Shown: positions 10,048 through 63,584 of the stretch, piece by piece
Layout of the letters: every line of letters begins with the position of its first letter
Numbering within the stretch: the first letter of the stretch is position 1
Assembly: GCA_903870365.1 (NCBI GenBank)
Contig: CAIQCQ010000034.1
Span: forward strand, 2,665 to 66,664
Reading direction: 5' to 3'
Origin: an uncultured bacterium
GTDB lineage: Bacteria; Patescibacteriota; Minisyncoccia; Phycocordibacterales; DATDWN01
DNA: 64,000 bases
Made by a program: the position numbers and the translations under genes
The notes under the pieces: generated by a model
What the model was told of the DNA's origin: nothing
The model's database searches: none
Seen by the model: only the letters and a program-made list of their open reading frames with translations

Positions 10048-11826
10048 ATGAAAAATATCTTTGATGCAGTAAAAAAATATGCTCTCGCTCACAAAATAAT
10101 CAGCACGATTGTTATCTTGGTGGTGATATACGGCGGATACAAAATATATGTGAGCGCTCACACCACCACAGGAGTGACTCGCTATGTCCTTGGTACCGTA
10201 CAAAAAGGCCTTGTTATTTCTAGTCTGTCAGAAAGTGGTCAAGTATCAACCACAAACCAGATTGATGTTGCATCAAAAGTTTCTGGGAATATTACGTGGG
10301 TTGGAGTCAAAGTTGGTGACACTGTCTATGCTGGCCAAGCACTTGCAAGTATTGATAATACAACAGCCAAACAAGCCGTAACTGATGCTGAAGCTTCTCT
10401 TGCCGGAGCCCAATTGCAATATCAACAAGATCAAGCATCCGCACCAATCAACTATCAAAATACACTCACTGCTTTAACAACCGCTCAAGACAACCTTGCT
10501 ACAGAATACAACAATACATTTAATGATCTTTCTAATACATATCTGGATCTCCCGACGGTGATCAATGGTGCACAAAATATTTTATACGGTTTTGATTTGA
10601 GTCCAAGTAAAACACAGGCCAATGCTGACGTATTGATCAATACATTTAACAATGATCTTCAGACGACCGTACGAACGTCGGCAACACAAGCAGAAAGTGA
10701 TTATACAACAGCTCGGTCTTCATATGACCCCGCTCTTGCCCAATATCAAATTACTCAAAGAAATTCTGCAACCAGTACCATCGAAACACTCTTGACGACA
10801 TCAATTCAAACGACTACAAATATTGCGCAAGCACTACAAAGTGAACTTAACTTCCTCGCTCTTGTCAGTGATGTGGCTACCCAAAACAATATTCATATAC
10901 CGACCACAATTACCACACTGCAAACAAATGCAAGAAATTATCTCACCACAACAAACAACGATCTCAGTCTCTTACTTTCAGAAAAGAAAGCCTTACAATC
11001 AGCAAAACAAACAATTACAACTGATCAACAAAACATCGTACTTCTCCAGGTTGGCAACCCAACTCAAGACAACCCCATCACGCTCCAAATTGAAAAAAAT
11101 AACTTGGCCAAACAACAACAAGATTTAGATAATCTCAAAACTACACTCGGATACTATACGATCACCGCTCCTTTTGCCGGCACCATATCTGCTGTGCCTG
11201 CAAAAGTTGGTCTCAATGCGGGAACCATTGCCACTGTGGTCACCAACCAACAAATTGCTCAACTTTCTGTCAACGAAGTAGACGCAGCAAAAATTGCTCT
11301 CGGAGACAAAGCGGTTATTACTTTTGATGCGTTGAGTGACTTGAGTATTACGGGAACTATTAATGAAATTGATCCTGTCGGTACCGTCAGTCAAGGTGTG
11401 GTGAGCTATATCGTCAAAATAACGTTTGATACCCAAGACCCACGTGTCAAACCAGGCATGACAGTCAACGCTTCGATCCAAACAGCAGCACATCCAGATG
11501 TACTGTACGTACCAAGCAGTGCAGTCAAAACAACTGCTGGTGCAAGTTATGTTCAAGCTTTTACTCCCCCACTCGTTGATACCAGTAATGGTGCCGGCAT
11601 GACATCAGCAACACCACCAGTACAAACACCAGTTACTGTTGGTATATCAAACAGCACCAGTGTTGAAATCCTTTCTGGAGTGACCGAAGGACAACAAATT
11701 GTCACACGAACTACGACTGGCACAACAGCCACAAAAACAACAACTACTCCAACTGCCACATCACTCCTTGGGGGTGGTGCCGGAGGACGTCCTGGAGCAA
11801 CTGGTGGGGTAAGAATTGGAGGATAA
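10048..11826 (+). CDS. efflux transporter periplasmic adaptor (HlyD/MacA family) with an extended Q/T/N-rich coiled coil and a Gly-rich tail
   Basis: N-terminal TM; biotinyl-lipoyl-like and beta-barrel segments (ITAPFAGTISAV...GTINEIDPVG); upstream of the MacB-type ABC pair. Confidence 0.7.
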   Translation: MKNIFDAVKKYALAHKIISTIVILVVIYGGYKIYVSAHTTTGVTRYVLGTVQKGLVISSLSESGQVSTTNQIDVASKVSGNITWVGVKVGDTVYAGQALASIDNTTAKQAVTDAEASLAGAQLQYQQDQASAPINYQNTLTALTTAQDNLATEYNNTFNDLSNTYLDLPTVINGAQNILYGFDLSPSKTQANADVLINTFNNDLQTTVRTSATQAESDYTTARSSYDPALAQYQITQRNSATSTIETLLTTSIQTTTNIAQALQSELNFLALVSDVATQNNIHIPTTITTLQTNARNYLTTTNNDLSLLLSEKKALQSAKQTITTDQQNIVLLQVGNPTQDNPITLQIEKNNLAKQQQDLDNLKTTLGYYTITAPFAGTISAVPAKVGLNAGTIATVVTNQQIAQLSVNEVDAAKIALGDKAVITFDALSDLSITGTINEIDPVGTVSQGVVSYIVKITFDTQDPRVKPGMTVNASIQTAAHPDVLYVPSSAVKTTAGASYVQAFTPPLVDTSNGAGMTSATPPVQTPVTVGISNSTSVEILSGVTEGQQIVTRTTTGTTATKTTTTPTATSLLGGGAGGRPGATGGVRIGG

Positions 11827-11928
11827 CGCAAGCCGAAATAAGAATAACGAATTAAGAATTACGAATAATTTTTCCATCGTTTTCTATCCATCGTATTTCA
11901 TAATTCATACTTCGTAATTCTACCCAAC

Positions 11929-12639
11929 ATGATTGAAATTAAAAATATCACAAAAACATACGGTACTGGTGATACAGCCTTCCAGGCATTAAAAGGTGTT
12001 TCTTTTACCATCGAAGACGGTGATTTTGTAGCCATCATGGGTCCATCTGGTTCTGGTAAATCGACCTTGATGCATATCCTTGGTTGTCTCGATACACCAA
12101 CCAGTGGAACATACCTACTCGACAAACACGATGTCTCTACATTTTCTGATGACGAACTGGCTGACATACGCAAAGATAAAATTGGTTTTGTGTTTCAATC
12201 GTTCAATCTTCTGCCTCGTACCACCGTGTTACGTAATGTCATGCTTCCACTCATTTACGCTGGTGTTGATGAAGAGACGCGAGAAAAACGCGCCAAAGAT
12301 GCACTCCTTGCTGCCGGCCTTGCCGAAACGCACTTTGAACACCGCTCAAATGAAATATCTGGTGGACAGATCCAACGTGTGGCAATTGCCCGAGCACTGG
12401 TCAATGATCCATCACTAATACTCGCCGATGAACCAACAGGAAATCTTGATACAAAAACGGGAGACATTGTTCTTGGCACATTTGAGCGTCTCAATCGTGA
12501 ACGTGGACGTACTATTATCCTCATCACTCATGAACCTGATGTAGCAGAACATGCACGTAGAATTATTACTATTCGTGATGGACTCATTGTCAGTGATAGT
12601 ACAGCGCATAAACGAATACATGCAAAAATAGAAAACTAA
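11929..12639 (+). CDS. ABC transporter ATP-binding protein (MacB/LolD type)
   Basis: Walker A GPSGSGKST, signature ISGGQIQRVAIARAL, Walker B ILADEPTGNLD. Confidence 0.9.
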   Translation: MIEIKNITKTYGTGDTAFQALKGVSFTIEDGDFVAIMGPSGSGKSTLMHILGCLDTPTSGTYLLDKHDVSTFSDDELADIRKDKIGFVFQSFNLLPRTTVLRNVMLPLIYAGVDEETREKRAKDALLAAGLAETHFEHRSNEISGGQIQRVAIARALVNDPSLILADEPTGNLDTKTGDIVLGTFERLNRERGRTIILITHEPDVAEHARRIITIRDGLIVSDSTAHKRIHAKIEN

Positions 12640-12644
12640 CATTT

Positions 12645-13877
12645 ATGAACATTACCGACATCTTACAGGAGACTTATACGGCACTATCAGCGAACAAGGT
12701 TCGTAGCAGTCTTACTGTGCTCGGTATTGTCATCGGTATCTCTTCGGTTATCGCTATGGTAGCTATTGGAAACGGTGCCTCTGCATCCATCTCTTCACGT
12801 ATTTCATCACTTGGATCAAACCTCATCATGATCTCCCCTGGTGCGCAACGTTCACAGGGTTTTGGAGTCAGTTCTGGCCGAGGCGCAGCTAAAAGTCTGA
12901 CCCAAGGAGACGCTGATGCTATATCCGCACAAGTTTCAAATGTTGTGGCAGTTGCTTCAGAAGTCTCTGGTCGATATCAAATTACGGCAAAAGGTACAAA
13001 TACAAATACCACCGTTGACGGGGTAACTTCCGCATATGCATCTATCCGTAACGTAGCAATAGATCAAGGCTCATTTATCTCTGACAATGATGACCAATCA
13101 GTCTCAAAAGTAGCTGTCATTGGACCAACCGTCGTAACTGATTTGTTTGGAACGACAGCCGTACCTTCTGATGCAATTGGTCAGACAATCCGCATCAATG
13201 GTATGGAGTTTACAGTCATTGGTGTCACAGTAGCAAAAGGTGGTACTGGTTTTGGAAATCAAGATGACATGATCTATATTCCCGCACAAAGTGCTATGCG
13301 TTACCTCAGTGGTAGTCAATATGTCACGTCGATTGATGTCCAAGCCTCTGATCCCAACGCCATGACTCAAGCACAGTCAGATATCACCAACCTCCTGCTC
13401 CAACGTCACAATATCAGTGACCCGACCCAAGCAGACTTTAGTGTTCTCAATCAAAATGATATTCTTGCTACCGCTTCAAGTGTAACAAATACTTTGACTT
13501 ACCTCCTGGCAGCAGTGGCTGGTATTTCGCTCGTCGTCGGTGGTATTGGTATCATGAACATGATGCTCACCACAGTGACTGAACGTACTCGAGAAATTGG
13601 TCTACGAAAAGCTATTGGTGCAAAAAAAGAAGATATCAGTAAACAATTTTTGATTGAAGCCACTGCTCTGACCCTCATTGGTGGTACCATCGGTATCAGC
13701 CTCGGGTGGCTCATTGCGTATGGAGTCAATGCACTGGGCATCATTAGCGCCACAGTGTCGCTGTCTTCAGTGTTATTGGCTTTTGGGGTGAGTGCGGTGA
13801 TTGGGATTACCTTTGGGTATTACCCAGCCCGCCGAGCTTCTGCTTTAAATCCCATTGAGGCTCTGAGGTATGAGTAA
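12645..13877 (+). CDS. ABC transporter permease (FtsX/MacB family)
   Basis: 410 aa; MacB periplasmic domain and C-terminal FtsX 4-TM region (LTTVTERTREIGLRKAIGA). Confidence 0.85.
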   Translation: MNITDILQETYTALSANKVRSSLTVLGIVIGISSVIAMVAIGNGASASISSRISSLGSNLIMISPGAQRSQGFGVSSGRGAAKSLTQGDADAISAQVSNVVAVASEVSGRYQITAKGTNTNTTVDGVTSAYASIRNVAIDQGSFISDNDDQSVSKVAVIGPTVVTDLFGTTAVPSDAIGQTIRINGMEFTVIGVTVAKGGTGFGNQDDMIYIPAQSAMRYLSGSQYVTSIDVQASDPNAMTQAQSDITNLLLQRHNISDPTQADFSVLNQNDILATASSVTNTLTYLLAAVAGISLVVGGIGIMNMMLTTVTERTREIGLRKAIGAKKEDISKQFLIEATALTLIGGTIGISLGWLIAYGVNALGIISATVSLSSVLLAFGVSAVIGITFGYYPARRASALNPIEALRYE

Positions 13878-16088: not shown

Positions 16089-16667
16089 TTACACCACCTC
16101 AACACTCTTCCTTTTCTCCCGTATCTTCACCAAAACATACACTAATGGCACAATGAGTACGACGGCGATGGTGTAATAGGCAATGTATGTCGGACCAAGG
16201 CGGAGGGCGTAGCGGCCAAAGTAATAGCCGATAGCAAGCAGGATGAGTGAACGGATGGCATTGAGGACACCGGCAAAGGTCAAAAAGTTTTTGAACGACA
16301 TTTTTGACACACCACTCGCCACCATAAAAGCCATACCGAGACCGTATGATGCTTTTGCTACGATCATAGTCTTCCACGGTGAACGCTCATACTGTTCCTC
16401 TATCTTTGCAATACGTTCATCAGTCATTCGTAAAAATTTCCATCGTCGAATAGCGGTCTTTCCTCCCCTTCCTAAAAAGTAAAAAAATGAATCTGATATA
16501 AGATCACCAAAAAAGACCACGAGAAATGCCCCTAAAAAAGTCAGCACTCCACGCGAGACTAAAAAACCAGAAATGATGGTGATAATCGGTCCTTCGAGTA
16601 CCGCAATAGGAAAAATCGCTTGGTACTTGTACATTCGAAAAAAACTGATGAGTGCACGCATGGTCAT
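16089..16667 (-). CDS. DedA family membrane protein
   Basis: DedA/SNARE-associated pattern (FPIAVLEGPIITIISGFLVSRG...FFGDLISDSFFYFLGR). Confidence 0.8.
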   Translation of the reverse strand: MTMRALISFFRMYKYQAIFPIAVLEGPIITIISGFLVSRGVLTFLGAFLVVFFGDLISDSFFYFLGRGGKTAIRRWKFLRMTDERIAKIEEQYERSPWKTMIVAKASYGLGMAFMVASGVSKMSFKNFLTFAGVLNAIRSLILLAIGYYFGRYALRLGPTYIAYYTIAVVLIVPLVYVLVKIREKRKSVEVV

Positions 16668-16676
16668 ATGTATATA

Positions 16677-16841
16677 TTATTGGCTGATTTTATACCCTAC
16701 ATAAATTCCCAAGATACCGCCGACCGCTCCCCACACCATAGCTGACATAGATAATTCGCTCGCGCCCCACAGAAGTGGCAAAAAACTTCCTACGAGAGAT
16801 CCTACCATCATCCCTCCCCAAATCAACTGTTTTGCTTCCAT
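16677..16841 (-). CDS. small glycine-zipper membrane protein (GlsB/YeaQ/YmgE-like), 54 aa
   Basis: Unlisted ORF read from the sequence: MEAKQLIWGGMMVGSLVGSF...GAVGGILGIYVGYKISQ. Confidence 0.4.
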   Translation of the reverse strand: MEAKQLIWGGMMVGSLVGSFLPLLWGASELSMSAMVWGAVGGILGIYVGYKISQ

Positions 16842-54794: not shown

Positions 54795-54869
54795 GACCTG
54801 GTGGCCAAGTGGTAAGGCGAAGCTCTGCAAAAGCTTTATACGGCGGTTCGATTCCGCCCCAGGTCTCCA
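54795..54869 (+). tRNA. tRNA-Cys(GCA), CCA encoded
   Basis: Hand-folded; anticodon loop CTGCAAA; T-loop TTCGATT. Confidence 0.8.
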
Positions 54870-54895
54870 AGAAAAAGTTTTACTTTTTCTCACAT

Positions 54896-54977
54896 GCCTG
54901 GGTGGTGGAATTGGTTTACACGCACGACTTAAAATCGTGTTCCGCAAGGAATATGGGTTCGACTCCCATCCCAGGCA
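54896..54977 (+). tRNA. tRNA-Leu(TAA)
   Basis: Hand-folded; anticodon loop CTTAAAA; long variable arm. Confidence 0.75.
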
Positions 54978-55030
54978 CTAGAAAATCACAAAGTGATTTT
55001 TAGCTGGGAAACAAAACCAATATCTTGGTT

Positions 55031-55098
55031 TTGTGTTGGGAATCGAACAGATTGTCGGTCTACGCTCACACCAGTGAGTGTCGACAATCTGGTGCCCA
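55031..55098 (+). repeat. Repeat-D copy (10-bp stem CAGATTGTCG / CGACAATCTG)
   Basis: Preceded by an A6CC..GGT6 hairpin; lies between two perfect 26-bp copies of the tRNA-Leu 3' end (54961-54986 and 55136-55161). Confidence 0.8.
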
Positions 55099-55169
55099 GA
55101 AATATTCAAGCGACGGCGAGAACATTTCGAGGGAGACTCCCATCCCAGGCACTAGAAAATACTTTCACA

Positions 55170-55201
55170 AAAAATTTCCATACGTGTATGGAAATTTTTT
55201 G
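55170..55201. terminator. bidirectional terminator hairpin
   Basis: AAAAAATTTCCATAC-g-GTATGGAAATTTTTT. Confidence 0.7.
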
Positions 55202-55207
55202 TATCTG

Positions 55208-55280
55208 TGCGCCCACCAGGGATCGAACCTGGGACCTTGTCCTTAAGAGGGACCTGCTCTACCAGCTGAGCTATAGGCGC
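55208..55280 (-). tRNA. tRNA-Lys(CTT)
   Basis: Hand-folded; anticodon loop CTCTTAA; T-loop TTCGATC. Confidence 0.75.
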
Positions 55281-55487
55281 ATATTAATTTATTCTCACAT
55301 ACCGAGCCTCTACTGTATACCGACCAAAACAGTCCCAAACCAGACAAAAAGTATTCTACCATTTTATTTATGAAAACCAAAGTACACCCCCAGAATTTTC
55401 TACATAAAAAATTATTGATAATCCCCTTTTCATCATTTTCAGAGTTGATATAATTGGTATACACTATTTGTCTTAGTTATAGAAAAA

Positions 55488-56138
55488 ATGAGTAAAAGAA
55501 AATCAAAAATAAAAATCATCTGGACAACAAATTTTGCATACGCAATAGGGCTAATTACTACAGATGGTAACCTATCCAATGATGGTAGACATATTCTCTA
55601 TACAACAAAAGATGAACAACTAGCTATTACATACAAAAAATGCCTAGATATCACAAATAAAATTGGTAAAAAATCAAGAGGATTTGGAAAAGAAAAAAAG
55701 TATTACGTAATACAGTTTGGTGATATAAATTTTTATGAATTTCTTATTACTATTGGAATAACACCCCGCAAATCAAAAACCCTTATACAAATACAAATAC
55801 CAAATAAATATTTTGCGGATTTTTTACGAGGATGTATTGATGGTGACGGTACTATTTCAATATCAGATCATCCAGAGTCACAATACAAACAATTAAAAAT
55901 TCGTTTATCTTCTGCAAGCCCGTTATTTCTTCAATGGATTGGCGAAAAAATAGCTCTTTTGATCAAAACAAAAGGTGGTCATATTTATACAGATAAAACA
56001 AAATCCGTCTCAACACTTTCTTATGCAAAAGCAGATGGTGGAAAAATCCTGAAATGTATGTATTATAAGAAGGATCTTCCTTGTTTAAAAAGAAAAGAGA
56101 AGATTGCTAAAAAATGGGCGAGTGGCGCAATTGGCTAG
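55488..56138 (+). CDS. LAGLIDADG homing endonuclease (two-motif, free-standing)
   Basis: FAYAIGLITTDGNL and FLRGCIDGDGTISI; the last 7 codons and the stop overlap tRNA-Leu(TAG). Confidence 0.8.
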   Translation: MSKRKSKIKIIWTTNFAYAIGLITTDGNLSNDGRHILYTTKDEQLAITYKKCLDITNKIGKKSRGFGKEKKYYVIQFGDINFYEFLITIGITPRKSKTLIQIQIPNKYFADFLRGCIDGDGTISISDHPESQYKQLKIRLSSASPLFLQWIGEKIALLIKTKGGHIYTDKTKSVSTLSYAKADGGKILKCMYYKKDLPCLKRKEKIAKKWASGAIG

Positions 56139-56198
56139 ACGCGCTAGTCTTAGGAACTAGTGGAGCAATCCGTGGGGGTTCAAGTCCCCCCTCGCCCA
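56116..56198 (+). tRNA. tRNA-Leu(TAG)
   Basis: Hand-folded; anticodon loop CTTAGGA; long variable arm; T-loop TTCAAGT. Confidence 0.75.
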
Positions 56199-57820
56199 CC
56201 CTTAGAGACTTTGAGGTCTTCGAGATCATCAAAGGGTGAATTAAGTGTTGTATTTACTACATTTTTTCCTTGAATGGTAAAGTTCAAGAAGATTTTGCGT
56301 ATAAAATAGTCCAATTCTTTCATATCTCTGCTTTTAGCTATATAACTAGCGGTATTATCTAGTAGTTCAAGGAACTCAGCGTAAGTCAGTATATTGACCT
56401 TGCCCTTAGCGATAAGTTTTTGAGCTTTTTGTATCTCCCCATTGATCGTAACTATTTCTGCCTTAGACTTCTGTAAATCTAATTTATACTCATCCTTTAT
56501 TTCCTTTGTCTCATCACTAATAAGCATATCCTTTATCTTGACGATCTTCTCATTTATTTTTCTTTCTTTAGCTTGCAAAGAAAGTACTTGTGTTTTTGCT
56601 TTAGAAATCCTCTGATCAGAAACTATTTTCATTTCTTTGGTGTAGTGATCGTAACTCTTTTCGGATGAAAAAGGCTTTTGATCCAAATACTTACAAATAT
56701 AATCAATCACTACTTTTGCTCTGACTGATTTCCCATACATATCACAGTCATCAGTTTCGCATCTATAATAAAAATAGTTTGTTGTACCCTCTTTCGTTTT
56801 CTTTGCAGTAATACCTGCACTCATAGGCTCACCACACTCTGCACACAAAACCATTCCTCTCAGCAGATCAGCTTTCACACCACCAGTTTTCCTATACTTT
56901 TTTGTGATAGCTATAAGTTGTTTGTCCTTAGAAAGTTTATTGATTGTCATAAACTCTGGAACGGTAATCATGGCTGAAAATCCATAATGTTCAATCAAAT
57001 TGATCACATCATTTTTCCCATAGTTGAGAATACCTGTATAGATAGGGTCTTTCATAAACTTCTCTACCCTTTGCTTGGTCATTTTTATAAATCTTGGCGT
57101 ATGATCCTTATGCCAGGTATGGTAGCCATTACTATTTAGAAAATCAGCTATTTCTGACATAATAACGCCACGCAATCTCATCTTAAATGCTTCTTTGATG
57201 AGAAGAAAATTATTGCCATCTGGCTGCAAACGCTGAAGTGCATCTTTGTAATATCCATGCTTTGCTTTATTGATATACTTGCCCTCACCCACACTTCTCT
57301 TATTACCTCTGCTCACATTATCGCTGAGCTTGTCAGAGTATTCTTTTGACAACACAAAGGTAATGCCTAAAAGCATTTTTCCACTCGTGTCATTTTGAAA
57401 AGTAAAACTGACAAACTTCAAATCTCTGATAATCTGCTTATCAACAAGATCAATAATTTCTCCCGCCTCTTTCATATTTCTAGCAAGACGATCAGGATGC
57501 CATGCTATCACCCCACCGTATTTACCCTTTTTAAGGTCATTGAGTAACTGTCTAAACTTAGGTCTCGTATCAGGCTCTTTTGCCGACTCAGCTTCTACAA
57601 TAATATCTTGCTTCTTTACAGTAATATCATTCCTCTCTGCAAACTCAGTACACTCTGCTATTTGGTCCTGCAAAGAGCGAACTTGTTTATCACTTTCATC
57701 AGTGGATTTTCTAACATAAATTGCATAGACGCAGTCTTCAGGGACAAAAACACTATCACTGCTTTTTAGCTGTTGTAGTGCATTTTTTAGTTCTTCAGGA
57801 GTTGTAATCGGATTAAGCAT
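56180..57820 (-). CDS. large serine recombinase (integrase)
   Basis: N-terminal resolvase domain (AIYVRKSTDESDKQVRSLQDQ) plus a large C-terminal recombinase / zinc-ribbon / coiled-coil region; 546 aa. Confidence 0.85.
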   Translation of the reverse strand: MLNPITTPEELKNALQQLKSSDSVFVPEDCVYAIYVRKSTDESDKQVRSLQDQIAECTEFAERNDITVKKQDIIVEAESAKEPDTRPKFRQLLNDLKKGKYGGVIAWHPDRLARNMKEAGEIIDLVDKQIIRDLKFVSFTFQNDTSGKMLLGITFVLSKEYSDKLSDNVSRGNKRSVGEGKYINKAKHGYYKDALQRLQPDGNNFLLIKEAFKMRLRGVIMSEIADFLNSNGYHTWHKDHTPRFIKMTKQRVEKFMKDPIYTGILNYGKNDVINLIEHYGFSAMITVPEFMTINKLSKDKQLIAITKKYRKTGGVKADLLRGMVLCAECGEPMSAGITAKKTKEGTTNYFYYRCETDDCDMYGKSVRAKVVIDYICKYLDQKPFSSEKSYDHYTKEMKIVSDQRISKAKTQVLSLQAKERKINEKIVKIKDMLISDETKEIKDEYKLDLQKSKAEIVTINGEIQKAQKLIAKGKVNILTYAEFLELLDNTASYIAKSRDMKELDYFIRKIFLNFTIQGKNVVNTTLNSPFDDLEDLKVSKGGRGGT

Positions 57821-57971
57821 AGTTGGCAGTATTTTATCATTTTTGCTTACTACCGCCTAAATACACTGGATTATGAAAAATGGAGTGGTTTTGAGACAAA
57901 CCATAGTATTTACTGGTTACGAGCTATAGAGAGCAGGATCCTTTGAATAGGAGCTGGTGTGGGTCTATATA

Positions 57972-58742
57972 TCAATCAGACCAGCCTAAACGCTCGTTAT
58001 TTTTAGGACGAAACATTTTGAACTTTATTCGGTATTCAACTTCTTTAGATATAAATACGGGATCGCCACCACCATATAAAGAAATCTTTGGCTTTCCATT
58101 TTTCTCATAAAAATCTTTATCGTGTTTCTCTATATCAAAAATAGTAGCTTCATATGCAAGTCGATGCTCGTATGAGAAACCTCTGTCTTTCAATTCTTTC
58201 TCGATATGATCAGGCCACTTGATAATGAGGTTATCTTCAGAGTCATCGAAACGTAGACCGAGTTCAACAAGAAACTGTACGATGCTATTCAGAGGAAAGA
58301 TCACGAGCCAATCTTCTTTCTTTCCAATCGTATCAAGTCCACCGATATATTGATCAAAACAATTATTACGGATGCTGTCTTCGGTAATAGCGACTGCATA
58401 TTTATTCTCTAGGACTCTATCAACAGTAGGTCCCATTTTAGAGCCAAACATATAACCACAGTGCATAAACTCGTCTGTTGGAAAAGTTCGTTCTATGTCT
58501 CCCGATGCTATCCTTTGAAAACGACTAGTTAGACCACTTGCTGAGTCATAATATTCAGTGAACTCGTAATATGTTCCGTATATTCCATGTCTGCCGTTTT
58601 TCTCATATTCTGCGAACATTTCTTTCAACTCCTGTGAAATTTCTGACCCAGCAATTTTCTCAGCCAATCTTTTCCAGTCGACAAACGGCGTAACATCTAA
58701 TTTGTATCCGAATTGTTTTGGGAAGATTTGTTTTCCGAACAT
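57972..58742 (-). CDS. hypothetical protein (island cargo)
   Basis: 256-aa ORF, no recognised motifs. Confidence 0.5.
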   Translation of the reverse strand: MFGKQIFPKQFGYKLDVTPFVDWKRLAEKIAGSEISQELKEMFAEYEKNGRHGIYGTYYEFTEYYDSASGLTSRFQRIASGDIERTFPTDEFMHCGYMFGSKMGPTVDRVLENKYAVAITEDSIRNNCFDQYIGGLDTIGKKEDWLVIFPLNSIVQFLVELGLRFDDSEDNLIIKWPDHIEKELKDRGFSYEHRLAYEATIFDIEKHDKDFYEKNGKPKISLYGGGDPVFISKEVEYRIKFKMFRPKNNERLGWSD

Positions 58743-58772
58743 AGTATTTTTATATAAAGATATTATAGCTTT

Positions 58773-59132
58773 TTATGCACCTATTCGTCCAAACCTTGCA
58801 TCATTGATCATTTGTTCCCACGATGAGAAATAACTTGATAATCGAGATAGATTTCCAAGAGCACCCCAAGCCATAACGGAAAAATGCTCAATTTTTACTT
58901 TCTGTTCCTTACCGTTTTCTTGGTAAAGAACATACAAATGATCTACACCAGCGCCAACGCCCTTTTGACTATTCACACTTTGAATACTTTTGACTGGTAT
59001 AGTAAACATTTTCTTACCACCTTTTGTCTCAAAATATAGATCCATCTTTGTGAGCACAAGTGCACCAGACTTTGTATTGAATAAACCACCTTTGAACTTT
59101 AGTTTATCTTCTTTCTTTATAATTTGTTCCAT
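58773..59132 (-). CDS. hypothetical protein, PH/GRAM-like (bPH-like)
   Basis: GALVLTKMDLYFETKGGKKMFTIPVKSI pattern. Confidence 0.35.
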   Translation of the reverse strand: MEQIIKKEDKLKFKGGLFNTKSGALVLTKMDLYFETKGGKKMFTIPVKSIQSVNSQKGVGAGVDHLYVLYQENGKEQKVKIEHFSVMAWGALGNLSRLSSYFSSWEQMINDARFGRIGA

Positions 59133-59367
59133 GTGTTTTCAGTTATCTAGTAAGCCACATGGAAACTTTTTGATACAAAAAGCCCACCACATGGGTGAGG
59201 GCCGAAGCCCTCCATACCAGTTTCCCGATATGACCTGTAACAGCACCCCATATGATGGGTTTTTTATCTGTTACAGGATTTTTCACCATGCCAGTGATTG
59301 CTCAGTGGTTTAGGCTACTTTTGCTTATTCAGTTGTATACTTCTATCATATCACTTTTCCAATAAAA

Positions 59368-60663
59368 TTAAACTGTTTTAAGAATACTAATAATTTTAAT
59401 GTTATTCTCTAGGACATCTTTAACTTCAGAAGCTACTGGCTCTTTGCCTTTATGGATAATTTCATTTCTAACCAAATCGTAAGATTTTAACCATTTATCC
59501 CATAAACCCTTATCTTTTTCAGCAATAGTAAAACCAATCGCTTCTTTCAATACATCTTTCAGACGGTCTTTAGTCCTCCAATTTTTATCTAGATAATCAA
59601 TTGCATCTTTTTCACTCAATCCTTTATTTTTTTTAAGTTGCTCAATCAAAAAGTTTTCAACAAAAATCTCTAGAGATTGGAAAGATTGCATAACCGCCAA
59701 AGGGTAGTTGCGTATGTTGAATGAGTTTTGCGCATCAAGTAACAAAAGATTGTAGAGATCGGGAGTTTCCCCAGTTTCAAGCATTCTTTCCATTTCTTCT
59801 ATTTCCTTTTTGGACCTATTCATAACCGCTGCTTCTGTATTTACAGGAGAAAAAACCAACCCCTCATTTAAGTCAATAAAATAAACCATGTTTAAAGTTA
59901 CTTCCCCCAATCTCGTAAGATGCTCTTGTTTTGTTACAAATCTATAAGTATCTATGAGATTATTTACGATTTTAAAACAGATTTCTTTTACTTTTTCTTC
60001 TATGAGAGTTCGTGCAGACTCCTCTTCAAGTTCTTCTTTCTTAACTGAAAGATCAAACTGAACATACAGACGAGTAAAACGAAATCGACCATTACGATCC
60101 TTCATCCTCTGAACATTAAACCCAGTGTAATTATGTTCCCACCCCTCAGTAGAGTCCAAAGGTATTTTAGGTCCTACGATGACGTACTTTTGAAAATACA
60201 AAACCTTATCTTCAGCGAAAAAATCTGTTGGATTAGAGACTTCTGTATCAGTTTGTGCTTTCTTTGTCCAAATCTTTGTAGGAATTATTAAAGCTTTTTC
60301 TCCAGTTTCTTTTGAAAATAAGACTTCAATTTCATAGTCATTAGGTATATCAATACAATAAGGGATGTGTAACTCTGCCAAAACATTTCCGTAATCAAAA
60401 TCTTTTAGAAAATCTGAGTCAACATACTTGAACGAAGTTCCTAATTTATAAATACCGCTTACAGGAGTAGGAGAAACATTTTTAAGGTCTACCATTAAAG
60501 CACTCTTTTGTTGTTCTTCTGTCATACTTAAAAATCTCTCCTTATCGACTAAAGAGTTTAATTTAAGAGTCTCCACTCTGTCTTGTATGGAAACTGTCGC
60601 ATCAATAAAGACGGACATCTTTTTTCTTCGTACTGGATCAGACATGACTTTTCCAAGCAACAA
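59368..60663 (-). CDS. hypothetical protein with a C-terminal HEPN-like domain (RNxxxH)
   Basis: LVRNEIIHKG gives the R-N-x3-H motif within the last ~40 residues of a helical C-terminal region; N-terminal 300 aa unknown. Confidence 0.5.
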   Translation of the reverse strand: MLLGKVMSDPVRRKKMSVFIDATVSIQDRVETLKLNSLVDKERFLSMTEEQQKSALMVDLKNVSPTPVSGIYKLGTSFKYVDSDFLKDFDYGNVLAELHIPYCIDIPNDYEIEVLFSKETGEKALIIPTKIWTKKAQTDTEVSNPTDFFAEDKVLYFQKYVIVGPKIPLDSTEGWEHNYTGFNVQRMKDRNGRFRFTRLYVQFDLSVKKEELEEESARTLIEEKVKEICFKIVNNLIDTYRFVTKQEHLTRLGEVTLNMVYFIDLNEGLVFSPVNTEAAVMNRSKKEIEEMERMLETGETPDLYNLLLLDAQNSFNIRNYPLAVMQSFQSLEIFVENFLIEQLKKNKGLSEKDAIDYLDKNWRTKDRLKDVLKEAIGFTIAEKDKGLWDKWLKSYDLVRNEIIHKGKEPVASEVKDVLENNIKIISILKTV

Positions 60664-60982
60664 TTATCTGTATTATTCCGACTACCACTAACGCAGCAGT
60701 TAGCCATTGCATTGCTGTAGCATGACGATCATTACTTTTAGCTAGAGTCTCATTTGATTTAATCAATTTGTCTGTTGTTTCGTGAAGTGCAACTCGATTT
60801 TCTTTTGTTGACTCGGCTACCTGCAACTGAAGTAATTGCAATGACTCCGCTACATTCAAAGAAGCAAGTGCAGTTGCATACCCAGTATGTGCATCCATTT
60901 GAGCACCTAAACCCAAGCCATTTAATTGGGAAAGTTTTTGTTCAACTTGGTCATTTCTAGTTTTGTTTGGTAATTTGTCCAT
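60638..60982 (-). CDS. small coiled-coil protein with a C-terminal TM anchor
   Basis: 114 aa; overlaps the next ORF by 26 nt (translational coupling). Confidence 0.45.
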   Translation of the reverse strand: MDKLPNKTRNDQVEQKLSQLNGLGLGAQMDAHTGYATALASLNVAESLQLLQLQVAESTKENRVALHETTDKLIKSNETLAKSNDRHATAMQWLTAALVVVGIIQIIVAWKSHV

Positions 60983-61084
60983 ATACCCAGTATGATACTC
61001 TCTTCAAAATAAAATGTCATATTCGTGGTATTTACCGTAAAATTATAGTAAACTGTGTTGTAATTAACATTAACAACAATTATC

Positions 61085-62494
61085 ATGTCGAACTCAGAGG
61101 CTACTATTATCAATGACGATCAGGATCTCATTGATGCAGGTTACAAACCACAACTAAAGCGAAAAATTGGTTTCTTTGCTTCCTTCGCAGCCTCATTCTC
61201 CATTATGTCAGTACTCATGGGAGTATTTACAAACTATGGGTATGTACTTGGTAAAGCGGGGCCGTTTGGTTTGTGGACATGGTTTATTGTTGGCTTTGGG
61301 CAGCTCATGGTAGCACTTGTTTTTGCTGAGATGGCAGGGCGTATTCCACTCACAGGAGCTTTGTATAACTGGAATGATAAACTAGGTCATCCTGCGATCA
61401 GTTCTCTTGTCGCTTGGCTCTCAATTTTTGCATACGCCATTGGAGCAGCAGGCATCATTGTCATTATGATGGCACCGCTTCAATCACTCATTGGACACAG
61501 TTTAAGTATGGGTACAATTCAAATAGTTGGACTAGCGATTATTGCTGTTCAAATGTTTATTAGCATTTACGGTATTCGTTTAGCTGCTTCAATAAACAAG
61601 TTTGCTGTTGTTGCTGAGATACTTGCTCTTATTGTTTTCGGTGGATTACTTCTTTTTGTAGTTGCAGCAAAAGGCCAGATCAATACTTCTTACCTAACAA
61701 CAATTCCTAGTACTCCAGTTCCATATTGGCCAGCTTTCCTTATTTCAATTCTTTTGGGAGCTTGGACAATTTTTGGTTTTGAGGCACCATCTGATCTTTC
61801 TGAAGAAACTCTAAATGTGAAACGTATAGTGCCGAAAAGTATTATCTCAGGCATTATCACTTCTATTGTTCTCGGTGCTTTCTTTATTGGAGTAGTAACA
61901 ATTGCCATTCCTAATCTTGCAACAGTTACTGCATCTGCTGATCCTATTTCTACAATCTTCGCTACTCATTTAGGTCAAGGGTTAACAAATGTAATGCTTC
62001 TCATGGTTCTTATTGCGATGTTTGCTACCGCACTTCTCAATCTCACAGTTGCAACTCGTGTTTTGTTTGCAATTTCTCGTGATGAAAAGTTTGTCGGACA
62101 TTCATTGCTCAAAAAAGTTTCTTCTCATGGTATCCCTGTCTATTCTGTCATTGCAATCATTGCAGTTGAAGTCATCACATTCTTAACCATGTACGGACTA
62201 TCAGCAATTTATGCTTCTGCTATTGTTTTACTTGGATTGGCTTACTTGATCACAGTAGTTAATTTTGTGTTGAACATTAAAAAATTACCACCTACAACAA
62301 ACTTTTCATTGGGCAAGTGGCACTGGCCAGTAGTAATAATCTCAATAGTTTGGTTGGTTCTTTTGCTTATTGTTCTCACAATACCGCAAGAGTTCCATCT
62401 AGCAGCAGAGATTGGTGCAGGAGTTGTTATTCTGGGATTTGTACAGTATTTTCTTCAGCGAGCTTCTAAAGGTAAAGTTGTAGCGATTTCCTAA
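61085..62494 (+). CDS. amino acid permease (APC superfamily)
   Basis: 469 aa, 12 TM, APC-type N-terminus. Confidence 0.8.
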   Translation: MSNSEATIINDDQDLIDAGYKPQLKRKIGFFASFAASFSIMSVLMGVFTNYGYVLGKAGPFGLWTWFIVGFGQLMVALVFAEMAGRIPLTGALYNWNDKLGHPAISSLVAWLSIFAYAIGAAGIIVIMMAPLQSLIGHSLSMGTIQIVGLAIIAVQMFISIYGIRLAASINKFAVVAEILALIVFGGLLLFVVAAKGQINTSYLTTIPSTPVPYWPAFLISILLGAWTIFGFEAPSDLSEETLNVKRIVPKSIISGIITSIVLGAFFIGVVTIAIPNLATVTASADPISTIFATHLGQGLTNVMLLMVLIAMFATALLNLTVATRVLFAISRDEKFVGHSLLKKVSSHGIPVYSVIAIIAVEVITFLTMYGLSAIYASAIVLLGLAYLITVVNFVLNIKKLPPTTNFSLGKWHWPVVIISIVWLVLLLIVLTIPQEFHLAAEIGAGVVILGFVQYFLQRASKGKVVAIS

Positions 62495-62958
62495 GTTGTG
62501 GCCGTCTCTTTTGAAGTCATGATCACCTTAGCTGTCGTGAAGGTTCTTCCTTTAACCCTCTTACCTTTTGGACTCCATCCTGCAACTACTTGAAGCCACA
62601 GAGCTACACTTCCTGGATCACCAGTTTGTATAGCTCTCCTGTACAAAGAAAACAAAACATTTTTAGTCAGATTGTGTCCCCACCGAGATATTTCACTTAA
62701 AGACTCATTCTGTTTGATCAGATTATTCCAGTTGGTCAGTGTAGACATTTCAACTCCATACTTTTGAGAAAACTCAGTCTGAGTACGGATTTTGAGTAAC
62801 TCACCATACTGAGCATCTTCGTCGGTAAGTTGCTGTGCTACCCTTTCAGCAATTTGACGCTTCAAAAGCACGGGAATAGTTCTCCATGTTTTATATACTT
62901 CAAACACATCTCTCCTATAGGGTTGTGCTGTATTTTTGGTATTTTTTGGTATTTCCAC
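62491..62958 (-). CDS. hypothetical HTH-containing protein
   Basis: 155 aa; FSQKYGVEMSTLTNW HTH-like. Confidence 0.35.
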   Translation of the reverse strand: MEIPKNTKNTAQPYRRDVFEVYKTWRTIPVLLKRQIAERVAQQLTDEDAQYGELLKIRTQTEFSQKYGVEMSTLTNWNNLIKQNESLSEISRWGHNLTKNVLFSLYRRAIQTGDPGSVALWLQVVAGWSPKGKRVKGRTFTTAKVIMTSKETATT

Positions 62959-63027
62959 AATACCTTAATTTTACCAAATCTCGTCAAAGAAGACAGGGAT
63001 CAGGTACAGAGTTCAAGATAAATACTC

Positions 63028-63243
63028 TTATTGTTTTGGAGGAGGATTTTGACCCAAAGTAATGATTTCTCCTGTCGGAGCGACTACTTGCTGAGGACCA
63101 GATGCTTGGGGCGGCTGAGGGTTACTGACGGGTGCAGGATTTGCTTGTGGAGCAGGAGGTGTCGGAGGAGTTGGAGGTAATACTTCGATCACATCGGTCA
63201 AATTATCTTTGTTTGTAGGTCTAAATGGGCTATTCATAAGCAT
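63028..63243 (-). CDS. hypothetical Pro-rich small protein
   Basis: 71 aa, PPTPPTPPAPQANPAP. Confidence 0.3.
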   Translation of the reverse strand: MLMNSPFRPTNKDNLTDVIEVLPPTPPTPPAPQANPAPVSNPQPPQASGPQQVVAPTGEIITLGQNPPPKQ

Positions 63244-63396
63244 ATTATATCAAATCAGAATGTTACATACAATGCAGATTTCTCTCTTTCTTTAGCCATA
63301 AACTTTCTAATATCATCATTCCACTGCTCTATAGTTTCTATGTTAGTATTTATGATATCGAAAAGTTCAAGCGTAGCATTTAAATGCCCACAAATC

Positions 63397-63420
63397 AAAA
63401 AACCGCGAAAGCGGTTTTTT
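63397..63420. terminator. bidirectional terminator
   Basis: AAAAAACCGC-gaaa-GCGGTTTTTT. Confidence 0.7.
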
Positions 63421-63445
63421 GTTTGGTGCGAGAACAAAACAAAGC

Positions 63446-63516
63446 TTTGTGTGGGAGACTTGAACAGATTGTCGGTCTACGCTCGTACCAACAAGTGTCG
63501 ACAATCTGGCGACTAG
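63446..63516 (+). repeat. Repeat-D copy
   Basis: GAACAGATTGTCGGTCTACGCTC...TGTCGACAATCTGG; same preceding-hairpin architecture as the 55031 copy. Confidence 0.8.
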
Positions 63517-63584
63517 AATTTTTTAATTTGACGAAATTAAAAAATTCGGTGGCTAGTCCCCCTCACCCCCACCCCCCACACCCA

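Follow-up and report, generated by a model that had tools for sequence, protein, structure and literature searches.

HEPN enzymes dimerise, with two R-x4-H motifs making up a composite active site, and are usually inactive until triggered. ApeA was reportedly described by Gao et al. in 2020 as a single-protein HEPN anti-phage system. It is a mainly alpha-helical protein of ~580 aa with an N-terminal, a Mid and a split HEPN domain, the last with insertions, is turned on by a ligand whose binding pocket is remote from the catalytic centre, and cuts tRNA anticodon loops (10.64898/2026.01.26.701840); a further preprint also deals with its mechanism (10.64898/2026.03.20.713152). Integrative elements that target tRNA genes by means of a large serine recombinase have tycheposon-like precedent, at 27 of 937 elements (10.1101/2020.12.28.424599), and the LOOT RNA is known as a metagenomic small RNA (sRNA) candidate, of Rfam type sRNA gene, with no genomic context (PMC5737381; PMC7779021). 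Here we analyse a 64,000-nt stretch of contig CAIQCQ010000034.1 (assembly GCA_903870365.1) from an uncultured bacterium of the Patescibacteria (candidate phyla radiation, CPR), hereafter the window, in which all coordinates are given with strand as listed in Table 1. The window contains an integrative island that carries a large serine recombinase, a LOOT RNA and a HEPN protein of 425 aa, which we call HEPN-425. The nearest homologues of its IF-2 are annotated as Parcubacteria or Patescibacteria, the best non-self match being 69% identical. Taken as a whole, it is probable that this is an excisable island bearing HEPN-425 as a stand-alone abortive-infection RNase, together with LOOT as a leader acting in cis. 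For the defence role of HEPN-425 specifically, the chances are about evenly balanced.

The ends of the island are given by an empty site. A look-up of contigs encoding the exact IF-2 of the window yielded contig L151 (assembly ERZ18668134), which is the same as the window up to position 56199 and then continues for 49 nt that are exactly 63392-63440, and thus delimits the island as 56200-63391, a length of 7,192 bp. The two junctions have a 6-bp core in common, GCCCAC. In a junction search of contigs, the occupied right-hand attachment site (attR) was present in L001 and L002 and the empty site (attB) in L151 only, and because L002 and L151 share one assembly, ERZ18668134, the island is polymorphic in the sampled population of one strain. 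As the core coincides with the discriminator end of tRNA-Leu(tag), the tRNA remains whole with or without the island. The far border of the window island and of three sister islands carries no long repeat of the tRNA-Leu(tag) 3' end (up to 3 mismatches allowed), and repetition of the 6-bp core only is as expected for a serine recombinase. A displaced tRNA-Leu(tag) 3' end had been considered as the far border and was discarded, as nothing above chance was found in the window or the three sister islands. The GC content of the island is 36.8%, against 41.4% in the rest of the window. The locus thus combines insertion at a tRNA 3' end, an empty site in the same strain and a distinct composition, the marks of a tRNA island, with left and right sites (attL and attR) that share a short core only and flanks that L151 joins exactly, the mark of a serine integrase. 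Two collinear relatives, L021 and L022, have the gene order of the window, with ClpB, an aminotransferase, DUF4446, IF-2, RbfA and then four tRNAs (tRNA-Cys, tRNA-Leu(taa), tRNA-Lys(ctt) and tRNA-Leu(tag)). The similarity of L021 to the window ends directly past tRNA-Leu(tag); contig L022 stops ~340 nt beyond this tRNA, and the break is seen in L021 alone. The island is an integrative element of the large-serine-recombinase kind at the 3' end of tRNA-Leu(TAG). The first-pass annotation of this stretch had called a mobile island with a large serine recombinase beside a tRNA, which the empty-site contig bears out, and the comparison with an island-free sequence that it had recommended for defining attL and attR located both ends through L151.

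The recombinase, which had been recognised correctly as a 546-aa large serine recombinase, has three Pfam domains above their cut-offs (Resolvase PF00239, E=3.4e-22; Recombinase PF07508, E=1.7e-7; Zn_ribbon_recom PF13408, E=2.8e-7) and a PHROG integrase match (E=9.3e-63), while its NCBIfam matches to XisF and CcrB fall under cut-off. The catalytic-serine motif YVRKST is readable in the translation, and a catalytic domain with its serine, a Recombinase domain and a zinc ribbon together make up the domain set of a large serine recombinase. The island resembles known elements of this class (Bxb1/phiC31, SCCmec CcrAB/CcrC, XisF) in its three-domain recombinase, in the position of the recombinase gene at the end of the element, in its very short identical core of 6 bp and in precise excision that leaves the target intact. 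In contrast to these elements, the attachment site of the excised form (attP) lies here in the recombinase open reading frame (ORF), many tRNAs are targeted in relatives, LOOT RNA is often carried, and the host belongs to the Patescibacteria. The island is therefore a large-serine-recombinase integrative element with unusual traits, namely attP in an ORF, many tRNA targets and LOOT. No paper linking serine recombinases, Patescibacteria and integrative elements was found in the literature that we searched.

The position of attP has a consequence for the recombinase itself. Its ORF converges on tRNA-Leu(tag) and reads 22 nt into the tRNA, and the integrated form ends with 7 tRNA-derived codons, the last residues, GGRGGT*, being the complement of the acceptor stem. 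In the reconstructed excised circle the ORF continues in frame into 63391-63255 to give 585 aa, ending ...KGGHLNATLELFDIINTNIETIEQWNDDIRKFMAKEREKSALYVTF. This reconstruction places attP within the recombinase gene and predicts an integrated form of 546 aa and an excised form of 585 aa, with integration exchanging the last 44 residues for 5 tRNA-encoded ones. The overlap of recombinase ORF and tRNA 3' end is also present in L008, L009 and L013, and sister islands have the same convergent overlap at tRNA-Asn(gtt), tRNA-Ser(tga) and tRNA-Ala(tgc). It recurs in 9 of 30 recombinases from LOOT loci, all of 513-584 aa and at Asn, Ala, Glu and Leu tRNAs, and relatives have it at eight other tRNA species, including Asn-gtt, Ser-tga, Ala-tgc, Leu-taa, Glu-ttc and Glu-ctc. 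The overlap thus looks like a trait of the clade, and the exchange of tails at integration could act as an inbuilt switch of directionality. The alternative tail has no detectable homology to other recombinase C-termini, these tails being too divergent. In SSV1-type archaeal elements, which encode a tyrosine integrase, attP likewise lies in the coding sequence, the target is a tRNA, and integration splits the gene into two large parts. The island is like SSV1 in having attP within the recombinase gene, integrated and excised forms that differ, and a tRNA target, but its recombinase is of the serine and not the tyrosine superfamily, and the C-terminal tail alone is exchanged. In L005, a sister island with both HEPN-425 and LOOT, a group I intron (16481-16792, minus strand; Rfam, 66.7 bits) directly follows the recombinase and occupies the place held by the tRNA in other islands; ARAGORN finds no tRNA there, and the target may be an intron-containing tRNA.

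HEPN-425 had been annotated as a 431-aa protein with a C-terminal HEPN motif. The ORF and the motif RNEIIH are present, but the likely start is the ATG at 60645, as this gives 425 aa, the length that the database entry and the homologues have. The protein consists of a beta-rich N-terminal region of ~275 aa and a C-terminal HEPN domain (residues ~279-423) with the motif R393-N-E-I-I-H398, an instance of the HEPN R-x4-6-H pattern. In an alignment of 28 family members (36-64% identity) R393 and H398 are invariant, and the N-terminal 275 aa, too, contain many invariant positions. The AlphaFold model (mean pLDDT 76.5, pTM 0.48; C-terminal domain pLDDT 82-91) has nine beta-strands in residues 9-270 and a compact helical domain of ~145 aa at 279-423, with the all-alpha four-helix HEPN fold, on which Foldseek agrees. 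At the level of the family, Pfam HEPN_Apea matches 8 of the 28 members (E<0.01), Pfam HEPN matches 3, and the HEPN half of the PADLOC Csx1/Csm6 model matches 15. The predicted fold, the invariant arginine and histidine and the family profiles together support the earlier call and argue that the C-terminus is a bona fide HEPN domain. The family has 48 full-length homologues of 37-64% identity, all from CPR-type metagenome-assembled genomes (MAGs) or metagenomes, and an exhaustive profile search at E<0.001 brought the count to 702 cluster representatives, 65 being close. The more remote relatives, 300-350 aa long, align to profile positions ~175/215-423 only, which suggests an "extended HEPN" module joined to a family-specific N-terminus; ten of these distant relatives gave no Pfam match. 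A PHROG of unknown function matches residues 202-414, and the family profile found no match among PDB sequences even at E<=10. A Nitrosopumilaceae archaeon MAG (L020, 10001-10723) encodes one distant partial relative, with 24% identity across residues 183-423, and among the close relatives several come from MAGs that bear the labels Gammaproteobacteria, Actinomycetes or Bdellovibrionales, labels which may reflect binning errors or horizontal spread.

Among described systems ApeA is the closest analogue. Like ApeA, HEPN-425 is one polypeptide with a large non-catalytic N-terminal part and a C-terminal HEPN R-x4-H motif, is found among restriction-modification and other defence genes, and has HEPN_Apea as the Pfam family that matches most of its members. 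In contrast to ApeA it has 425 aa, a beta-rich N-terminus and, in the predicted structure, a minimal HEPN domain of ~145 aa. HEPN-425 has no Pfam match to the ApeA N-terminal domain, and a PADLOC search of the 28 members (E<=0.01) matched Csx1/Csm6 and CARF_HEPN models only, and no ApeA model. Membership of ApeA was therefore rejected on both profiles and architecture; the HEPN subtype, with 8 of 28 members at E<0.01, is close to ApeA but under threshold. Membership of Csm6/Csx1 was rejected as well, as the match of HEPN-425 is confined to the HEPN part of the model (207-336 of its 357 positions), a CARF domain went undetected, and the 15 HEPN-425 loci are free of cas genes. It is best called a new HEPN family, neither ApeA nor Csm6/Csx1. 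The earlier statement that the architecture matches no nameable system holds in so far as membership of ApeA fails, though ApeA is a named system and the nearest one.

Gene neighbourhoods of HEPN-425 were compared across 15 loci, the window included, 13 further distinct loci being examined. The one neighbour that recurs is a large serine recombinase, found in 8 of the 15, mostly 1.5-3.5 kb downstream and co-directional, whereas about half of the loci have no recombinase within 10 kb. The conserved neighbourhood that the first-pass annotation had proposed to seek in relatives thus consists of the recombinase, and not of its other three cargo genes. A type I restriction-modification gene set lies near HEPN-425 in three loci, and immediate neighbours elsewhere are HsdM, AbiU2-HEPN, GIY-YIG, SNase, DUF4209, AbiEi/AbiEii and SLFN_AlbA_2. 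Such a setting is typical of defence islands, in keeping with the defence context suspected at the outset. ApeA, as a single-protein HEPN defence, gives a working precedent for a stand-alone HEPN-425, and HEPN-425 most likely acts alone and not in a four-gene system, judging from these neighbourhoods. It could even represent a new abortive-infection system that consists of one protein and has a sensor of novel fold.

Between the HEPN-425 and 119-aa genes lies a LOOT RNA (Rfam RF03000) that scores 90.2 bits against a gathering threshold of 46.4 and covers model positions 1-121 of 121, with a 3' extension past the Rfam model that ends in GCUUUUUG at 59183-59176. With Rfam, LOOT is detected in four HEPN islands that are independent of one another (those of the window, L005/L007, L013 and L019), but not in L008, L009, L011 or L012 (E<1), and a custom covariance model found none in nine HEPN loci. 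LOOT was therefore rejected as a universal HEPN partner. A pattern built from the four HEPN-island copies led to 123 further loci (L023-L145), in 100 of which the custom model was searched and confirmed 93 matches; the whole set comes to 121 distinct sequences, with the window and three HEPN-island copies included. Large serine recombinases are the top gene family near LOOT, in 36-37 of the 121 loci. Where at least 3 kb of flank is available on both sides, a recombinase lies within 3 kb in 10 of 22 loci, and where at least 5 kb is available on both sides, within 5 kb in 6 of 8. There are two arrangements. In one, a recombinase of ~420-500 aa is divergent from LOOT, with its start 16-190 nt away and no tRNA at its 3' end (11 loci, such as L027, L046, L048, L050, L060, L076, L077, L091, L118 and L139). 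In the other, which includes the window, a recombinase of ~510-620 aa lies 1.4-4.8 kb downstream and co-directional, and abuts a tRNA in 9 of 13 loci. ParB-methyltransferase fusions (16 loci), terminase-large-subunit-like genes (6 loci) and small helix-turn-helix proteins also recur in the set, and the ParB-methyltransferase and terminase-like genes suggest phage- or plasmid-like elements. L077 has both the divergent ~420-500 aa recombinase and a terminase-like gene.

Downstream of LOOT the layout is more constant than the cargo. GCTTTTTG follows LOOT in 91 of 114 loci, and a co-oriented ORF begins within 100 nt past it in 69 of 102 loci, as against an opposite-strand ORF in 1. The gap between model end and ORF has a median of 64 nt (about 40-77 nt), and the families of these ORFs are numerous and unrelated. 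The order of structured RNA, U-tract and variable ORF is that of a transcription-attenuating leader, and LOOT appears in this respect to resemble a terminator-containing leader more closely than a free sRNA. It is most likely, as far as such a layout can tell, a cis-regulatory gate for a cargo slot. The window copy agrees with Rfam LOOT in its full-length match and in a metagenomic, unclassified source, and departs from the Rfam description in that copies of the window type are in CPR serine-recombinase elements, have the GCUUUUUG extension and are followed by a variable co-oriented ORF. A fixed -10 box upstream of LOOT, present in the four HEPN-linked copies, was discarded as a feature, as it is not conserved across 119 loci. 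Nor does the locus have the form of a type III toxin-antitoxin system, in which a tandem-repeat antitoxin RNA would directly precede its cognate endoribonuclease toxin gene, given that LOOT is single-copy and lies downstream of the HEPN gene, and is then followed by unrelated ORF families. That LOOT is a defining part of undescribed serine-recombinase elements of Patescibacteria, either as a cis gate or as an RNA cofactor of the recombinase, is a tentative proposal that we hold to be somewhat doubtful. Neither the link between LOOT and the recombinase nor the exchange of the recombinase tail is described in the literature searched.

We propose the following mechanism. Like other HEPN enzymes, HEPN-425 would dimerise through its HEPN domains and so build up a composite active site from R-x4-H motifs, and the family-specific N-terminal region would act as sensor or auto-inhibitor, by analogy with ApeA, holding the protein off until an infection cue is received. 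Once triggered, HEPN-425 would cut cellular or invader RNA. LOOT would be a backbone feature of the recombinase elements, and would serve in cis as a terminator-containing leader gating the downstream cargo ORF, which in the window would be the 119-aa/256-aa gene pair.

Other explanations have to be weighed against this one. The first-pass annotation had assigned the ORFs of 114, 431, 119 and 256 aa, all of which are present on the minus strand, to a four-gene defence or toxin system on an island at 54795-63520 bounded by Repeat D and a 26-bp repeat. Such a system is favoured by the direction of transcription that all four genes share with the recombinase and by the overlap of the first two, and both repeats exist. 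However, the partners are not conserved: no homologue of the 114-, 119- or 256-aa proteins was found near HEPN-425 in the 13 other loci by tblastn or by all-against-all clustering of the 15 loci, and relaxed BLAST among ORFs downstream of LOOT or HEPN revealed no relation. The 256-aa family occurs without HEPN-425 in L146-L149, and between the HEPN gene and the 119-aa/256-aa pair stands LOOT, whose 3' end is terminator-like. The span itself is not one island, as the empty site sets the ends at 56200 and 63391, with Repeat D and the 26-bp repeat outside, and the tRNA cluster that had been taken as an island hallmark is likewise outside, being ancestral and common to island-free relatives, one of which, L021, has a LAGLIDADG gene there as well. 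The four-gene system with these boundaries is thus most improbable.

HEPN-425 might instead form, with the 114-aa ORF, a toxin-antitoxin or addiction module that stabilises the island by post-segregational killing and is not directed against phage. The 114-aa ORF overlaps the HEPN-425 start codon by 8 nt, which suggests translational coupling, and addiction would be selectable in an excisable island. This explanation is nevertheless unlikely, as a 114-aa homologue is upstream of no other family member, no conserved small partner is seen in its place, the 114-aa protein has a C-terminal hydrophobic anchor and no MNT/nucleotidyltransferase signature, and the highly conserved 275-aa N-terminus suggests that HEPN-425 has built-in regulation. 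It would be very unlikely, too, that HEPN-425 serves the element itself as a backbone gene and not as defence cargo, whether by processing LOOT or recombinase mRNA or by targeting host tRNA or RNA. The co-directional recombinase as sole recurrent neighbour and the presence of LOOT in 4 of 13 HEPN loci are what such a role would lead one to expect, but HEPN-425 is present in only 4 of 121 LOOT loci, a small minority of the LOOT-associated recombinase elements, about half of its own loci are without a recombinase within 10 kb, and its other neighbours are classic defence genes.

Several points weigh against the reading of an excisable island with a stand-alone HEPN-425 RNase and a LOOT leader. 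The empty-site evidence is one contig reaching 49 nt past the junction, and the attP circle junction is absent from the fetched loci and from IMG/VR. The HEPN-425 of the window is itself sub-threshold (Pfam HEPN_Apea E=0.079, 13.8 bits against 24.4; PADLOC E=0.0088), so that the HEPN call rests on family-level matches and on a predicted structure. For the N-terminal region no structural or sequence relative was found, so that a role as sensor is guesswork. The 114-aa ORF overlapping the HEPN start could be a locus-specific partner. As LOOT is absent from most HEPN loci and lies upstream of the 119-aa/256-aa genes and not of the HEPN gene, it says nothing on HEPN function. The LOOT pattern was built from four copies, which makes for a biased set that may over-represent one sub-clade.

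Table 1. Features of the island and its flanks, in window positions.
Feature	Position	Strand	Evidence or remark
tRNA-Cys	54795-54869	+	ARAGORN, Rfam
tRNA-Leu(taa)	54896-54978	+	ARAGORN, Rfam
26-bp perfect direct repeat of tRNA-Leu(taa) 3' end	54961-54986 = 55135-55160		
Repeat D, about 70-80 nt, hairpin-forming	55031-55112; 63446-63526		copies 81% identical (55040-55109 and 63457-63526)
tRNA-Lys(ctt)	55207-55280	-	ARAGORN, Rfam
LAGLIDADG ORF	55488-56138		left of attL; Pfam E=2.8e-9; PHROG endonuclease E=1.2e-27
tRNA-Leu(TAG)	56115-56201	+	attB-side target; core GCCCAC 56194-56199 at discriminator end; ARAGORN, Rfam
Large serine recombinase, 546 aa integrated	56180-57820	-	Resolvase, Recombinase, Zn_ribbon_recom domains
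256-aa protein, function unknown	57972-58742	-	confident structure model, no close structural relative
119-aa protein, weakly GRAM/PH-like	58773-59132	-	Pfam GRAM E=0.0024, under cut-off
LOOT RNA (Rfam RF03000)	59197-59316; with 3' extension 59176-59316	-	between HEPN-425 and 119-aa genes
HEPN-425 protein, 425 aa	59368-60645	-	first annotated as a 431-aa ORF extending to 60663
114-aa ORF, coiled-coil-like, C-terminal hydrophobic segment	60638-60982	-	ORF list; gene calls in L001
Amino-acid/polyamine-type permease, 469 aa	61085-62494	+	Pfam AA_permease_2 2.3e-38; NCBIfam matches
ORF of 155 aa, function unknown	62491-62958	-	ORF list; no family match
ORF of 71 aa, proline-rich, function unknown	63028-63243	-	ORF list; no family match
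Alternative recombinase C-terminal tail and attR core (GCCCAC 63386-63391)	63255-63391	-	junction reconstruction, translation

The cargo of the island is a mosaic of HEPN-425 with the 114-aa ORF, LOOT with the 119-aa/256-aa pair, a permease and two small orphan ORFs. The cargo as first listed had left the permease and LOOT unassigned, and both are inside the island, the permease being cargo by its position between the att cores. It would be a horizontally mobile nutrient-uptake cargo in a CPR bacterium, and a CPR bacterium is expected to depend on imported metabolites. The 114-aa ORF has no family match and no homologue beside any other HEPN-425 gene, and is specific to this island. The 119-aa ORF is the first downstream of the window LOOT, and homologues of it are absent from all other HEPN and LOOT loci; the PH-like character that it had been given survives as a weak likeness, as its Pfam GRAM match is sub-threshold. 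The 256-aa protein has 29 CPR homologues, two of them in other serine-recombinase elements, one of these beside a rolling-circle Rep gene; another homologue lies behind IF-2/RbfA without a recombinase.

Outside the island, the four tRNA genes, which had been identified correctly, form a Cys-Leu-Lys-Leu cluster that is ancestral chromosome, because it is kept in L021 and L022. tRNA-Lys(ctt) is on the minus strand in the window and on the plus strand in the collinear clusters of L021 and L022, and the strand change is a local inversion beside the insertion of Repeat D and the 26-bp repeat. The LAGLIDADG gene had been named correctly, as Pfam and PHROG agree, but its assignment to the island does not stand, as it lies left of attL. 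In L021 a homologue of 30% identity (11897-12634) lies in the same tRNA cluster at another position, and the gene is probably a resident of the cluster and not island DNA. The window ORF shares 24 nt with the start of the tRNA gene downstream of it, and the L021 homologue extends 18 nt into tRNA-Cys.

The repeats that had been read as island borders are a different matter. The 26-bp repeat is perfect, with its second copy one base from where it had been placed, and no shuffle gave 2 matches; it is, however, outside the island and not an att site. Repeat D does exist as two direct copies, with no third in the window, but neither bounds the island: copy 2 starts 55 nt outside attR, while copy 1 and the 26-bp repeat are ~1 kb left of attL. 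Repeat D was accordingly discarded as attL/attR, as the empty site puts copy 2 outside and L022 has such units behind two tRNAs without an island. Each unit opens with the T-arm of the upstream tRNA in reverse complement, followed by a hairpin with a 10-bp stem, and at tRNA-Leu(taa) the direct copy of the tRNA 3' end, which is the 26-bp repeat, comes after this hairpin. In L022 the equivalent units lie behind tRNA-Lys and tRNA-Leu(tag) (10920-10974 and 11408-11528), with compensatory changes in the hairpin stem (CAGATTGTCG/CGACAATCTG as against CGAATCAGCG/CGCTGATTCG) and a 16-nt copy of the tRNA 3' end, and L021, with an element of this kind at 13116-13188, carries the 3' end of tRNA-Leu(tag) once more as an inverted copy of 28 nt. 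Repeat D is thus a tRNA-trailer element, a phenomenon separate from the island.

The island is an exactly delimited and currently polymorphic integrative element in the Patescibacteria, a group in which mobile elements and immunity are poorly charted. The HEPN-425 family, uncharacterised and with an invariant catalytic motif, offers a tangible candidate for a new RNase defence made up of one protein. LOOT, for years an orphan RNA family, gains a genomic context in serine-recombinase elements, with a fixed place upstream of variable cargo. With attP located within the ORF, the two recombinase isoforms could be a simple means of controlling integration versus excision, and such isoform control would be of interest to engineers who use large serine recombinases as genome-editing tools.

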